IMG/VR virus record: IMGVR_UViG_3300033981_001160
Span: 1-24,509 of that record
Length of the DNA stretch: 24,509 bases
Origin: a virus
Taxonomy: Duplodnaviria > Caudoviricetes
Direction: 5' to 3' (one strand)
Below are positions 5,544 through 14,707 of this stretch, piece by piece. Numbering within the stretch: position 1 is the first letter of the stretch; each line of letters starts with the position of its first letter. The position numbers and the translations under genes were made by a program. The notes beneath the pieces were generated by a model. The model was not told the origin of the DNA. It was given only the letters and a program-made list of their open reading frames with translations, and did not search any database.

Positions 5544-7561
5544 CTAACTTTGGACCCACAGGGCAACTCGTTTACGAACGCACCTACAGCCGAACCCTCC
5601 CAGACGGCACAAAAGAAACCTGGCCGCAAACCGTCGAACGGGTAGTAGACGGCAACCTCGCCTTGGTCGATGAGCGTTACCAGCTTGAGGATGAACGCCA
5701 ACAGTTGATCGACATGATGCTCGACTTCAAGATCCTGCCCGCTGGCCGGCACTTGTGGGCGTCCGGTGTGAAGAACGCTGAACACCTGTTCAACTGCTGG
5801 GTTGCCGGGTGGACCGATGAGCCCGCCGATCACTTCGAGTTCACCTTCATGCGGTTAATGGAGGGCGGCGGGGTAGGTGCCAACTACAGCAACAAGTATC
5901 TGTCCCGGTACCCGTTGGTGAAGCAGGCACTCAAGGTTGAAATCGTTTGCGACCCGGAACATGCGGACTACGACGACATGAAAGCTGCCGGGTTGCTGTC
6001 GGAAACCTATGACCCGGACTGGTTCGGGGCGTTCAAGATCGAGGACTCCCGCGAGGGGTGGGCTGCCGCCTTAGTGGATCTGATCGACACCCACTACAAC
6101 CCTGTTGTCGAACATACCAACCGTGTGTACGACGTGTCCCGTGTCCGATCCGCAGGCTCCAAGCTGAAAACCTTTGGTGGTAGGGCTTCCGGGCCTTTGC
6201 CGTTGGCGAAGATGCTGATTGATGTTTCGCAGGTGTTCAACCGCTTGGCGGTTGACCTCGAAATGCTTGACGGTATCTCCGCTATGGAAATCGACCACGC
6301 AATCGCGCAGTGCGTTGTCGCTGGCGGTGTGCGGCGATCCGCACGAATGGCAATGATGCACTGGGCTGACCCGCAGATCGAAAAGTTCATCGACATCAAG
6401 CAGCAATCTTTGTCGCACTGGACAACCAACATCAGTGTTGAGGTTGATGACAAGTTCTGGTATCAGGCCCAGCAAGGTTCCGCATGGTTAGCCGCCCGGG
6501 TACTGAAAGCCCTATCGCGGGGCATGGTGAACAACGGAGAACCGGGGTTCTGGGACTCATCCCTGTCCAACGTCGGTGAACCCAACGAGGTTGTCTGCAC
6601 CAATCCTTGCGGCGAAATCACCTTGGAGCCGTGGGAGCCGTGCAACCTCGGCCATGTGAACCTGGCCGGGTTCGTGGACGAACACGGCAGGGTGGACACC
6701 TTCGGGATGGACAAGGCGCACCAGTTGATGACCCGGTTCCTCATCCGGGCCACCTTCTCCGCTGTGGGTGACCCGAAATCCCGTGAGGTTCTGGACCGCA
6801 ACCGGCGCATCGGTGTCGGGCACTTCGGGGTTGCCTCATTCCTCGCCATGTCGGGGTTGAAGTATTCCAAAGCCCCGGACAGCCGGGAGTTCCAAGCCCT
6901 GCTGAATCAGCTTGCAACAACGGTGGATTACTCGGCTTCGGCGTTCTGCCACGAACTCCGAATCCCTGTGCCGGTCAAGAAGCGCACCATCGCACCGACA
7001 GGCACTATCGCCAAAATGCCTGGTGTGTCTGAGGGAGTCCACCCCATCTTTGCGAAGTATTTCATCCGCAGGGTGCGGTTGTCGAAGGTGGACCCCGATC
7101 AGGTGATGATGCTGAAGCAGTACGAGGCTGACGGGTTCGAGGTTGAGGACTGCCAGTACGCAGCCAACACCGCTGTCATCTCCATCCCCACAAAGGACAC
7201 GCTTGTTCAGGCTGTCACTGACAGGTTCGGAGATGAAGGCGAAAGCATTGTGGAGGCTGCCAGCGATCTGCCGCTTCATGACATGCTGCGCTTCCAGGCG
7301 TTGTATCAGGCGTATTGGGCTGACAACGCTGTCAGCTTCACAGCGAATGTTGATCCGCAGCAATACAGCTCTGACCATGTTGAAGAGCAGATACGGCAGT
7401 TCGCCGGAAGGCTAAAAGGCTGCACCATATTTCCGGAGGCATCCATGCCACAGTCTCCGTATGAAAGGTTAAGCCGTTGGGAATATGAGTCAGCAGTGGC
7501 GAAGCAGGTTTCTGACGGTATTTCGGAAGACTGTGGAACCGGAGGGTGCCCGGTGCGCTGA
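5540..7561 (+). CDS. nrdJ: adenosylcobalamin-dependent (class II) ribonucleotide reductase
   Basis: [23 protein letters not shown] catalytic motif, CNL, APTGT and C-terminal CxxxxC redox tail; no beta subunit nearby. Confidence 0.93.
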
Positions 7562-7932
7562 TGCCTTATCCGGTTATCCCTGTTGAGGAACGGCTACGTC
7601 GAAGACTAGTTAAGGACGAGAACGGATGCTGGTTGTTTCAAGGCCAGTCCGGAAGGCGCTACGCCTATCTCAAAATCAACGGCAGCCGCAAGTCGGTACA
7701 GGCTCATAGGGCTGCGTACCAACTGTGGGTAGGCGACATCCCTCCTGGGATGTTCGTCTGCCACACATGTGATGTTCCGAAGTGCTGCAACCCTTCTCAC
7801 CTGTTCTTGGGCACACCCGCTGAGAACTCCGCAGACAGGGATGCGAAGGGTAGGCACTGGGTTCCAAGAGGTAGTGAACACTACCTCTACAAGCACGGCA
7901 AGTACAGCCTGTACCTGCCGAACAACAAATGA
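7561..7932 (+). CDS. free-standing HNH (homing-type) endonuclease
   Basis: GCWLF...AHRAAY...[33 protein letters not shown]; TGATG coupling to the RNR stop. Confidence 0.9.
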
Positions 7933-11565: not shown

Positions 11566-11783
11566 CTGATCTACGTACCCGTATCGCCCAGGTGCTGCAA
11601 CCGCGACTGCTGTCAGACATGCGATGGCCTGACACGTCGATAGCGACACGCAACGCCGAAGTGCTGGCCGACGCGGTGATCGAACAACTAGGGCTACGTC
11701 AGGACTACGACCCGTATTCGGAACCTGAATCGTCCCGCTACCGCTACGTCACCGAATGGACAGCCGACGATGAAACTGACTGA
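11562..11783 (+). CDS. hypothetical protein, paralog of the previous gene
   Basis: DLRTRIA...ADAVIEQLGL...YRYVTEW; ATGA overlap. Confidence 0.8.
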   Translation: MTDLRTRIAQVLQPRLLSDMRWPDTSIATRNAEVLADAVIEQLGLRQDYDPYSEPESSRYRYVTEWTADDETD

Positions 11784-11922
11784 ACTGATCCTCCAACTCC
11801 ACACCGAAATGCTCACCAGAGGCAACGTCGACGTGTGGATCGGCGGCAACCGGGCCAGGCCACCCAAAGTGGTGTGGTCAGAGAAAACCGACGATCACCC
11901 CGCAGGCATCTACCTTTCTTAA
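11770..11922 (+). CDS. 50-aa hypothetical protein
   Basis: Not in the ORF track. MKLTELILQLHTEMLTRGNVDVWIGGNRARPPKVVWSEKTDDHPAGIYLS; overlaps the upstream gene end and fills the gap. Confidence 0.6.
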   Translation: MKLTELILQLHTEMLTRGNVDVWIGGNRARPPKVVWSEKTDDHPAGIYLS

Positions 11923-11944
11923 ACCCGCTACAAACTAAATTCCT

Positions 11945-11973
11945 AACCCCTCTATGTAGGGGTTTGTTTGCTT
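11945..11973 (+). terminator. probable intrinsic terminator ending the early operon
   Basis: AACCCCT-ctatgt-AGGGGTT followed by TGTTTGCTT. Confidence 0.6.
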
Positions 11974-11992
11974 ACCCTTTTAGGGAGGAAAG

Positions 11993-12400
11993 TTGCTGTA
12001 CCAGGAAATAATATTAGACCATTACAAACATCCTATTGGCCGGGGATTGCGTGAATCATTCACGCGGCAGGCAAGCCAGCACAACCCCACTTGCGGGGAT
12101 GAAGTTCAAATCCGCGTCCTAATCACTGAAAGCCGGGTGGTGGAACTGTCGCACGAAACGCAGGGCTGCTCAATAAGCCAAGCGTCAGCAAGCGTTCTCA
12201 CGGAGCAGGTCACTAACCTATCAGTTGACGAGGCAATGAATGCGATTGGGAACTTTTTCAAGCTACTTAGGGGTCAGCCTGCGGAAGGACTGACGGAGGA
12301 TGCAGCCGCGTTCCAGGGTGTACGAAATTATCCTGCCCGTATAAATTGCGCTTTCCTGCCCTGGAAAGCTCTAGAGAAGGCGCTGGGGGAGAGCAAATGA
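11993..12400 (+). CDS. sufU: SufU-type (NifU/IscU family) Fe-S assembly sulfur-transfer/scaffold protein
   Basis: LYQEIILDHYKHP, NPTCGD, GCSISQASAS and FQGVRNYPARINCA: all three Cys plus the Asp; no IscU LPPVK motif; GGGAGG RBS. Confidence 0.93.
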   Translation: MLYQEIILDHYKHPIGRGLRESFTRQASQHNPTCGDEVQIRVLITESRVVELSHETQGCSISQASASVLTEQVTNLSVDEAMNAIGNFFKLLRGQPAEGLTEDAAAFQGVRNYPARINCAFLPWKALEKALGESK

Positions 12401-13203
12401 AACACGTCGTTATGTTTAGCGGCGGGGTAGGTTCCTGGGCCACCGCGAAGCGGGTAGTAGATGAGCATGGGACAGACAACCTTTATCTTGTCTTCGCTGA
12501 TGTCAAAGGTGAAAACGATAGCCCACACCTCGGAGAAGACGAAGATGTGTACCGATTCATTGACGAGGCTGCCGCAAATCTAGGCGGCACCCTTGTGAAG
12601 TTAAAAGAAGGCAGGTCGATATGGCAAGTCTTCAAGGATGACCGTTTTCTTGGAAATAGCCGTCTGGCGAACTGCTCTAAGTTTCTCAAGCAGCGACCTT
12701 GCCGCGAGTGGTTAGAAGCTAACTGCGACCCGAATGAAACGGTGGTCTATGTCGGCATTGACTGGTCTGAAGCTCACCGGTTGCCAGCGATTGAGAACGC
12801 ATACAAGCCATACACGGCAAAAGCCCCTCTGTGTGAGCCTCCTTTAATTGACAAAAAGGACATGCTCAAGCAGTGCCGGGAAGCGGGAATAGAACCCCCG
12901 CGATCTTACGAGCAGGGCTACCCTCACGCGAATTGCGGTGGCGCTTGTGTACGTGCAGGTAAAGCGCAGTGGGCCATGCTTTTGAAGCAGAACAGGGAGC
13001 GTTATCTTTTCCACGAAAACCAGGAGTCAGAGCTTCGTCAGTATCTCGGAAAGGACGTGACTATTCTTCGGGAGCAAGTGGCGGGGGAGAAGGTTCGTCT
13101 GACTTTGCGGGGCTTCCGGGAACGCCAGGAGGAACAAGGATCGCTATTTGATGATGATGAGTTAGACCTTGGGGGATGTGGGTGCTTTGTTCAAGACGAG
13201 TAG
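12397..13203 (+). CDS. PP-loop (adenine nucleotide alpha hydrolase / PAPS reductase-like) Cys-rich protein
   Basis: VVMFSGGVGS PP-loop, LVFAD, NCSKFLK, VGIDWSE, HANCGGACVRAG, terminal GGCGCF; nine Cys; ATGA coupling to sufU. Confidence 0.82.
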   Translation: MKHVVMFSGGVGSWATAKRVVDEHGTDNLYLVFADVKGENDSPHLGEDEDVYRFIDEAAANLGGTLVKLKEGRSIWQVFKDDRFLGNSRLANCSKFLKQRPCREWLEANCDPNETVVYVGIDWSEAHRLPAIENAYKPYTAKAPLCEPPLIDKKDMLKQCREAGIEPPRSYEQGYPHANCGGACVRAGKAQWAMLLKQNRERYLFHENQESELRQYLGKDVTILREQVAGEKVRLTLRGFRERQEEQGSLFDDDELDLGGCGCFVQDE

Positions 13204-13212
13204 TTGTGGGCG

Positions 13213-13276
13213 ATCAGCGAATGCATCTACACTAACCCACACTCGACGTGACCTAGTGTTCTGACTGTAAACTGAT
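13213..13276. other. candidate attP site
   Basis: Only non-coding gap beside the integrase; imperfect dyad ATCAG...ACACTA...CAC...TCGA...GTG...TAGTGT...CTGAT centred near 13244-13245. Confidence 0.6.
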
Positions 13277-13279
13277 GGG

Positions 13280-14707
13280 ATGAAGGTTTTGGGCAGAGTC
13301 CGGTTATCCCGCAGCACAACGGAAAGCACCAGCATAGAACGCCAAAAGGAACTGATCGAACAATGGTCTGCCCTGCACGAACACGAAATCGTGGGGTGGG
13401 CTGAGGACGTTGACTGCCCCGGCTCCATTCACCCTATGGAAGCCCCTGCTCTCTCCCCGTGGTTTGGGGAGAGGGCGGGGGAGTGGGAGGTCATGGCTAT
13501 CTGGCGGCTAGACCGCCTAAGCCGCAGAGTGATCGCTTTGAACGAGGTCTTCGGGTGGATGCTGCGCCACGACAAAATCCTTGTCAGCATCACCGAATCA
13601 CTAGACCTGTCCAACTGGACAGGCAGACTAGTCGCCAACGTCCTCGCAGGAGTCGCTGAAGGCGAATCCCAAGCCATTGTGGAACGCACCAAAGCAAGCC
13701 GGATGAAACTGGTTCAGTTGGGGCGCTGGCCCGGTGGACACGCCCCCTACGGGCTGACACCGGTAGAGCTAGCGGCGGGTGGCTGGCAGTTGCAACCTGA
13801 CCCACAACAGGCGGCTGTGATACGCAGGATCGCCGCTGAACTGATCGGCGGGGCCGCTGTAGAAGCGGTAGCCAACCGGCTCAACGAGGACGGCATACCG
13901 TCCCCCAAAGGGGTCAAATGGACACCCCAAACCCTGTTCAAAATGACCCAGGCGAAATACCTGCTCGGCCATTCCACCTACGGTGGGGAAACCGTCAGGG
14001 ATGCGGAGGGTTTCCCTGTCCTCATTTCGGAGCCTGTTCTGGACGCCGCTGAATGGGATCAACTACAAGCCGCTGTCCAACTCCGCAAGTCCGGGCCTAT
14101 ATCAAGAACCCGTAACGTATCCCCGCTACTGAATGTCGCTTTGTGTTTCGAGTGTGAGCAACCCTTATTCCACCGGGTGTACCGCAGGAACTACGGGAAG
14201 AACATTTACCGGTACTACCATTGCCGGGATAACCACACCGGGATGGTGGAAGCGGGAATGGTGGAGGAATTGCTTGAGGAAGCGTTTCTTGATGCTGTGG
14301 GGGAGCGGAAAGTCCTCGAAAGGGTGTTCCGTAAGGGCGAAAACCACGAAACCGAATTAGAGGACGCTAAACGCGCCCTGGACGACATTAGTACCCTGCT
14401 GGGTACAATGACCTCAGACACGGTGAGAAAACGTCTTACAGAGCAAATGAGGGCCATAGATTTTCGGATATCGACCCTTGAAAGGTTACCGACCTCCCAA
14501 GCCGGTTGGGTTTATAAAGAAACAGGGCAAACCTTCACAGATGCGTGGAATGCAGCCGACGTAGAGCAGCGCCGGCAGTTGCTAATCAAGTCAGGCATCT
14601 ACTTCAAGATACTGCGTGTGCCAGGAACTCAGGTAATAACTTCGGACCTGTACATTCCCGACGAGATGTTAGACCGCCTTAACGCAAAAAAGCCCCCCAC
14701 CCAATAA
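13280..14707 (+). CDS. int: large serine integrase (Bxb1-like)
   Basis: RVRLSR catalytic Ser, SIERQ, WRLDRLSR, recombinase domain, zinc ribbon CFEC...YYHC and coiled coil. Confidence 0.96.
   Translation: MKVLGRVRLSRSTTESTSIERQKELIEQWSALHEHEIVGWAEDVDCPGSIHPMEAPALSPWFGERAGEWEVMAIWRLDRLSRRVIALNEVFGWMLRHDKILVSITESLDLSNWTGRLVANVLAGVAEGESQAIVERTKASRMKLVQLGRWPGGHAPYGLTPVELAAGGWQLQPDPQQAAVIRRIAAELIGGAAVEAVANRLNEDGIPSPKGVKWTPQTLFKMTQAKYLLGHSTYGGETVRDAEGFPVLISEPVLDAAEWDQLQAAVQLRKSGPISRTRNVSPLLNVALCFECEQPLFHRVYRRNYGKNIYRYYHCRDNHTGMVEAGMVEELLEEAFLDAVGERKVLERVFRKGENHETELEDAKRALDDISTLLGTMTSDTVRKRLTEQMRAIDFRISTLERLPTSQAGWVYKETGQTFTDAWNAADVEQRRQLLIKSGIYFKILRVPGTQVITSDLYIPDEMLDRLNAKKPPTQ

Follow-up and report, generated by a model that had tools for sequence, protein, structure and literature searches.

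A SufU gene paired with a gene for an SspD/PptA-like PP-loop enzyme in a phage: a candidate sulfur relay for DNA modification

The window studied here, i.e. the whole stretch of DNA that was analysed, is a virus record of 24,509 bases that constitutes a 24.5-kb part of a phage genome. Two overlapping genes in it, one coding for a SufU-type protein and the other for a PP-loop enzyme, raise the question of which molecule such a phage might supply with sulfur. A preliminary description of the locus proposed that the phage SufU taps host SufS in favour of an enzyme that could thiolate DNA, tRNA or a nucleotide. The features of the region are the following:

11770..11922, plus strand: gene of 50 aa whose last codons come from the left end of the accessory segment, the empty allele giving another C-terminus (allele comparison)
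11906..13218, no strand: accessory segment of 1,313 bp with both genes, absent from near-identical sibling phages
11945..11964, plus strand: weak hairpin followed by a T-rich tract, a doubtful terminator (pattern match; z = -0.94)
11980..11986, plus strand: ribosome-binding site AGGGAGG before the TTG start of sufU (sequence)
11993..12400, plus strand: SufU sulfurtransferase, 135 aa, TTG start (profile matches, PDB matches, alignment)
12397..13203, plus strand: SspD/PptA-like PP-loop protein, 268 aa from ATG, SGGxGS loop, conserved C93, C180, C184, C261 and C263 (profiles, alignment)
13224..13277, no strand: probable attP, an imperfect inverted repeat outside the segment (left arm conserved before related integrases)
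13280..14707, plus strand: large serine integrase, not part of the cassette (profile matches)

The sufU gene overlaps the PP-loop gene by the ATGA at 12397-12400. This overlap, the 268-aa length, the nine cysteines and the NCGGAC and GCGC motifs of the enzyme are all as previously described, and so is the intact SufU-type gene: its product scores 134.9 bits with the curated equivalog TIGR01994, above the cut-off of 92.5, and keeps all the zinc and persulfide residues. The IscU and NifU models remain far under their own cut-offs with this ORF, which also matches PHROG 8429. The best PDB matches are mycobacterial SufU chains (9DCL and 8ODQ, E about 1e-35), with which C34, D36, C59 and C119, forming the putative zinc site and persulfide acceptor, are aligned; together with H10, these residues are invariant in 46 of 46 rows of an alignment of phage and bacterial proteins. 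The nearest named database relatives are actinobacterial SufU proteins (50-58% identity). The phage SufU is a protein taken from bacteria, and in the trees its phage copies (8 or 10) lie on one side of a branch with support of 92, where long branches meet, and 78, a result that neither backs nor dismisses a single capture. Position 54 is changed from Tyr to His in nine of ten phage copies versus three of 36 others.

Mycobacterial SufS is described in the available text of PMC10216065 as a type II desulfurase whose basal activity is low and is strongly stimulated by SufU; zinc-SufU accepts the persulfide on Cys40 and binds no Fe-S cluster. Since C34 of the phage protein aligns with that Cys40, and the characterised mycobacterial SufU binds no cluster, the phage SufU is best read as a putative sulfur carrier and not as a scaffold. 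It shares with the Zn-SufU of the mycobacterial suf operon the three aligned Cys, the Asp and a TIGR01994 score above cut-off, but it has no adjoining sufBCDS genes, is shorter (about 135 aa versus 145-165) and sits on a long branch. A tblastn search of the window at E<1e-3 gave no match to sufB, C, D or S, so that it contains no SUF Fe-S assembly operon, and a pattern search found no sigma-70-type promoter upstream of sufU.

The two genes travel together. Among four viral contigs with the window's integrase at 99-100% identity, L246 has the cassette, while L244, L245 and L247 lack it and join window position 11906 to 13219; the missing 1,313 bases comprise both genes and nothing else. The flanks of L244 and L245 are 99.7-99.97% identical to those of the window, and the segment is likewise missing from six less closely related contigs that cover the site (L248, L252, L255, L258, L261 and L262). 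Since a single indel of 1,313 bp holds both genes, the cassette is dispensable and is gained or lost as one piece. The serine integrase is identical or 99% identical in the siblings without the cassette. We ruled out that the empty allele arose by a deletion running from one 8-bp repeat (11906-11913) to the other (13223-13230), because this allele retains bases that such a deletion removes; insertion is therefore the simpler reading. Third-position GC is 0.55-0.56 in both cassette genes versus 0.61-0.71 in five core genes, although the dCMP deaminase gene has 0.54. The pair had been placed between a terminator and attP/int, and this setting stands in part: a hairpin pattern and the integrase are present, but the hairpin at 11945-11964 folds no better than shuffles (z -0.94, versus z -6.7 for the hairpin behind the integrase) and the attP is a probable one.

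Read in reverse, the gene set of the window resembles that of a mycobacteriophage according to ORF and profile matches. The order is RecB-like nuclease, helicase, endonuclease VII, split primase, class II ribonucleotide reductase, DNA polymerase I, dCMP deaminase and serine integrase, with minor tail and tape-measure genes on the opposite strand beyond the integrase; we take this to be a cluster-A-like mycobacteriophage. The related records inspected carry the genus name Fromanvirus, and the DNA relatives of the window among 50,697 phage records are 62 Mycobacterium and 4 Rhodococcus phages. The presumed host is of the mycobacterial type. The 24 runs that match the cassette are lake-water metagenomes, 12 of them flagged as a possible source of the window. 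The assembly is sound, a single contig covering 11775-14758 without mismatch in two of four runs, both possibly the window's source.

Other observations concern the window outside the cassette. A 14-nt motif occurs in seven copies (up to 3 mismatches) between 524 and 8397, all on the plus strand and mostly at gene junctions (1.4 copies expected; none of 100 shuffles reaches 7), with no copy near the cassette; they resemble stoperator sites of the cluster A kind. An HNH endonuclease gene (7546-7932) overlaps the end of the ribonucleotide reductase gene. Contigs L254, L257, L259 and L260 share a minor tail gene with the window (84-95%), beyond which their region for immunity and integration is another one, with tyrosine-recombinase-like ORFs in L254 and L260 as judged by eye; the minor tail region is a tail module common to different phage types.

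The pair had been thought to be without known parallel, a view that does not hold, since it is present in 11 public phages. SufU matches were found in 38 phage records, including 16 Mycobacterium phage records that correspond to 11 phages, and in 11 of 11 of these SufU-carrying GenBank mycobacteriophages the enzyme gene is directly upstream of sufU, the reverse of the window order. The neighbourhood analysis proposed earlier thus shows that the pair recurs, in these phages and in further arrangements. The Fromanvirus phages involved are HanShotFirst (gp85/84), Pepe, Barriga, Nhonho, Bones, Froghopper, Scowl, Makemake, Marge, Sibs6 and PascalRango. Their PAPS-reductase-like and NifU-like genes belong to the same two families (59-60% and 43-44% identical) and overlap by four bases in the four records inspected; however, besides the reversed order, they lie near the genome end and not beside attP. 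In public genomes the pair is annotated without comment, the products being called variously tRNA methyltransferase, ribonucleotide reductase or PAPS reductase, and no functional study of it was found in the literature. Four of the other 22 SufU-matching records were inspected: three were host suf/isc operons and one was a lone NifU-like gene.

The 30 viral SufU loci comprise 14 of high GC that lack suf genes, one suf operon and 15 of low GC. Within 4 kb, each of the 14 high-GC loci has the enzyme, a member of a second PAPS-reductase-like family or the two together; these loci are not independent, since three identical proteins, six close relatives and the twin of the window are among them. 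The gene orders are sufU-enzyme, enzyme-sufU, enzyme-second-sufU, sufU-second and, in L128, sufU at 3.4 kb from the second family. The latter matches PF01507 above cut-off and, weakly, BrxP/DndC. It pairs with SufU (L007:4979-5899; L126 and L127:4524-5537), sometimes without a PptA-like gene, and has 33 matches among phage records, archaeal viruses included. Several loci show a C5-methyltransferase-like gene after sufU. An enzyme (P0001) and a SufU (P0122) that are 89% and 65% identical to those of the window each have a longest contig of 1,262 bases from the same source type; they probably represent the arrangement of the window a second time, with SufU diverging faster.

The enzyme is, however, often found alone, for instance in the phages Drago and Optimus. 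At least 44 of the 60 mycobacteriophage records with the enzyme lack a SufU match, and SufU is near the enzyme in 10 of 117 fetched loci, many of which have short flanks. SufU is therefore an optional booster and not a requirement. A quick tree of 48 rows rejects a single clade of SufU-paired enzymes (AU p=0.008), and the pairing therefore arose or was lost more than once.

What does the enzyme resemble? Its sole PADLOC match is SspD (PDLC02782, E=1.6e-12, residues 2-215), a model that has no curated cut-off and also matches in 6 of 14 control genomes. The sole significant PDB match of a profile of 121 homologues, among 177,635 sequences, is chain C of 21FY, named PptA (E=9.5e-14, positions 5-220), and the PP-loop serines are retained in the alignment together with C93, C180 and C184, which makes the enzyme PptA-like. 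A search with an IscS showed that the 21FY entry also contains E. coli IscS, a cysteine desulfurase. PptA is thus the only solved sequence relative of the enzyme and its partner is a desulfurase, but it is distant and the C-terminal GCGC region of the enzyme falls outside the alignment. The function of PptA is a predicted one, deduced solely from what it is called and what it binds. Its bound desulfurase is IscS, whereas the phage brings SufU, the partner of type II SufS.

The nine cysteines lie at 93, 102, 110, 146, 160, 180, 184, 261 and 263, with NCGGAC at 179-184 and GCGC at 260-263. Although the enzyme is Cys-rich as claimed, only five of them are conserved. In a set of 128 distant representatives (143 new ones, with length limited to 230-345 aa), C93 and C180 are kept in 128, C184 and C263 in 127 and C261 in 125. 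The set of nine was ruled out as a cluster signature (C102 in 21/128, C110 in 36/128, C146 in 50/128, C160 in 10/128). In the same alignment the PP-loop reads SGGxGS, without the usual Asp.

Homologues of the enzyme occur inside sspB-sspC-sspD operons in 3 of 21 bacterial genome loci (L054, L057 and L066), each with two SspD-like genes; one locus has SspH and one has a gene with a GmrSD domain. The L057 homologue, from a chromosomal sspBCD operon, is 48% identical to the enzyme over 267 aa, and all five ssp-operon homologues keep the five Cys. By its SspD profile match together with this full-length likeness to an sspBCD-operon protein, the enzyme belongs to the SspD protein family. In L241, L242 and L243 (G001-G003), Bacillaceae ssp operons each carry a pair of SspD-like paralogues; the last gene of one is McrB-like, and one has upstream genes with PLD-like and GmrSD domains. 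No desulfurase gene was found in the 16-18 kb fetched around each of three Bacillaceae ssp operons, nor near the enzyme in 120 loci.

Fusions and neighbours give a similar picture. In 43 longer homologues an intein is placed directly before C180 in 29 and before C93 in one, and inteins favour essential sites. Most of the inteins at the hot spot before C180 (P0241-P0281) have LAGLIDADG domains. Methyltransferase domains are fused in four of the 43 (two C5, one N6/N4 and one MT-A70); other fusions are DUF3987, AAA_25 or DUF3631 in six and a metallophosphoesterase in one, while two carry nothing named. Among 110 neighbours of 57 homologues, those assigned to families are mostly replication, recombination and nucleotide genes. 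Because the SspD/PptA likeness, the ssp operons, the conserved Cys, the fusions, the inteins and the neighbours concur, the family evidence points to sulfur chemistry on DNA as the probable activity.

The cassette would nevertheless differ from a complete Ssp system (SspABCD-E/FGH). The enzyme is linked to such systems by the PADLOC match and by homologues that are 47-48% identical, keep these five Cys and belong to three sspBCD operons of Bacillaceae, themselves only predicted to make phosphorothioate; however, the window has no sspA, B, C or E, and the enzyme is phage-borne and paired with SufU. No Ssp or Dnd partner gene was found among the 31 ORFs of the window or by tblastn. The earlier statement that sufS/B/C/D and Ssp/Dnd partners are absent is therefore upheld for the 24.5-kb part, and for it only, because the window is part of a phage genome. 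Our verdict from sequence comparison is that the enzyme may work like SspD/PptA, but that the cassette is not an Ssp system.

The reading that we prefer, with a probability of roughly 0.5, is that the enzyme acts solo, in the manner of SspD/PptA, in DNA phosphorothioation and is linked to host SufS by a SufU relay of its own. The phage SufU would take persulfide sulfur from host SufS and hand it to the PP-loop enzyme, which is predicted to insert it into phage DNA as phosphorothioate. The five conserved Cys may bind an Fe-S cluster and/or carry sulfur, ATP at the PP-loop may activate the target, and the sulfur from SufU could serve for cluster building, be the transferred atom, or both. An own SufU would raise the flux from SufS and could channel the sulfur to the enzyme instead of SufBCD. 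A phage with a sulfur-needing enzyme would gain from it in a host whose SufS needs SufU for turnover, and solo enzymes would have to draw on host IscS or host SufU. The benefit would be escape from restriction, the modification likely serving the phage as armour or as mimicry in the face of host defences; a vibriophage PAPS-domain fusion that confers escape from Dnd (bioRxiv 2021.05.05.442762) speaks for this reading.

The earlier idea of a phage SufU that taps host SufS for a sulfur-inserting enzyme thus gains support from the recurrence of the pair, its movement as one segment and the desulfurase-bound PptA, but SufU is not required, most relatives being without it. The options for the enzyme become fewer, since DNA is a better candidate target than tRNA, and SspD/PptA a better model than TtcA/TtuA or APS reductase. 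A role in lysogen defence is not supported. Against the preferred reading count the absence of SspB, SspC, DndD and desulfurase genes from the window, the PP-loop without its usual Asp, the distance of PptA and a fold search that cannot choose among PP-loop families, and likewise the many enzyme records that lack SufU, the interdependence of the 14 paired loci and the 15 low-GC SufU loci with neither enzyme. According to the text available of PMC12914056, PMC12707154 and PMC12839542, Dnd, Ssp and BREX-4 depend on an ATPase together with a DNA-binding partner, TdpC being a one-gene exception as cited in PMC12914056. The main gap is that such ATPase and DNA-binding partners are missing from this phage part.

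Among other explanations, one with a small chance of being right keeps the same sulfur relay and changes the product, which would be a thiolated base, a nucleotide precursor later built into phage DNA, or tRNA. No gene for a DNA-nicking or ATPase partner is nearby, and solo homologues are often among replication and nucleotide genes, as such a product would allow. The AlphaFold model of the enzyme (pLDDT 89) has a PP-loop fold, and in Foldseek and VIA-align searches PAPS/APS reductases, LarE, ThiI and others are near-tied, with Z of 10-12 for many; LarE, ThiI, NcsA, TtuA and MnmA come within 2-3 Z of the best match. The tRNA thiolases TtcA/TtuA/MnmA/ThiI (Z 9.6-11.0, rmsd 2.9-3.6, 148-171 aligned) share the PP-loop fold, but gave no Pfam, NCBIfam or PDB sequence match, the relatives at sequence level being SspD and PptA. 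21FY did not appear in the results of either program, the Foldseek library ending in April 2026. The HMM and structure searches suggested at the outset thus returned SufU (TIGR01994), an SspD/PptA-like sequence and a PP-loop fold. The fusions to DNA methyltransferases and replication domains and the close homologues in ssp operons also argue against another product, and the precursor route would equally end in sulfur-modified DNA.

Less likely again, the enzyme would not modify DNA by itself, but would borrow or jam the host Ssp/Dnd machinery as a mimic or decoy, with SufU diverting sulfur from SufS. The SspD homology without SspB/C and the dispensable segment fit this explanation. So does a vibriophage fusion of a PAPS domain with Dam that confers escape from Dnd, an anti-Dnd effect that the part of bioRxiv 2021.05.05.442762 at hand presents without a modification measurement, and phosphorothioate systems are reported to be common in Mycobacterium abscessus (available text of PMC8092301). 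The vibriophage gene resembles the present one in being an accessory PAPS-reductase-like gene that shifts host range against phosphorothioate defence, but it is fused to a methylase, lacks SufU, and is likened to the enzyme at the PAPS-reductase-like level and not by subfamily. Against a decoy, the PP-loop and five Cys are kept (125-128 of 128 representatives), as expected of an active enzyme, and PptA itself binds IscS, judging from the composition of 21FY.

SufU could also be a general host-metabolism gene that boosts Fe-S supply during infection and merely travels with the enzyme, which we hold to be improbable. The 15 low-GC viral SufU loci have neither PP-loop gene nearby, most enzyme genes are solo, and the L128 SufU is 3.4 kb away from its PAPS-reductase-like gene. 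Nevertheless, in this phage group SufU was in no case seen without a PP-loop gene (14/14 loci; 11/11 GenBank phages), the two being found in several gene orders, at different genome sites and with overlapping start and stop codons; and since the paired enzymes are not one clade, hitch-hiking from one event would need repeated losses. None of 80 metagenome SufU loci had either enzyme, and sufS was present in 74. The low-GC loci include T4-like viral contigs (L132, L135, L139, L142-L152 and L154) with SufU-type genes among replication genes, two of which show, by eye, an IscA/SufA-like gene and glycosyltransferase-like ORFs beside SufU.

That the enzyme is a true PAPS/APS reductase (CysH) of sulfate assimilation, as public annotations have it, is very improbable: it matches PHROG 424 'PAPS reductase' (1.5e-58) and CysH/APS reductases lead the structure matches by a margin below 1 Z, but it has no Pfam match at E<=0.05, PAPS_reduct PF01507 included (its relatives reach 18.1, under the cut-off of 22.5), no NCBIfam CysH match at E<=0.1 and no CysH chain among the PDB sequence matches of the family profile, it occurs in ssp-operon and methyltransferase contexts, and SufU is not known to act in sulfate reduction. 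ESM Atlas gave only unnamed, mostly viral clusters with partial PF01507 labels.

Phage PAPS-reductase-like genes have been likened to DndC, with DNA modification or action against defence as possible roles, in the available text of PMC8092301, PMC11437467 and PMC13551039; the accessible parts of PMC10853773 and PMC13251355 hold nothing further on phage enzymes. In a search of mainly open-access articles, no paper was found on the pairing with SufU or on PptA as a phage enzyme. These genes and their DndC link are thus already known, and the SufU pairing is what appears to be new here.

Phage 'PAPS reductase' genes are common and are usually counted as sulfur-metabolism genes. Here, such a gene is tied by sequence to SspD and to desulfurase-bound PptA, and by linkage to a captured sulfur carrier. 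A wider proposal, put forward tentatively, is that actinobacterial phages run a partner-free DNA phosphorothioation enzyme, some of them repeatedly recruiting host SufU, in a viral DNA-armour pathway, as a dedicated shuttle that unlocks type II SufS and serves two PP-loop families; eleven cultured phages would then have unrecognised sulfur-modified genomes. If true, this would be a viral sulfur-modification enzyme adapted to hosts that use SufS/SufU, and a role of SufU outside cluster assembly. A backbone modification would be predicted in named phages that grow on Mycobacterium smegmatis mc2 155, among which natural versions with and without SufU exist for comparison, so that the presence of the same pair in cultured phages makes the proposal directly testable. 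Such a modification would also bear on the host range of these phages against Dnd/Ssp defences.
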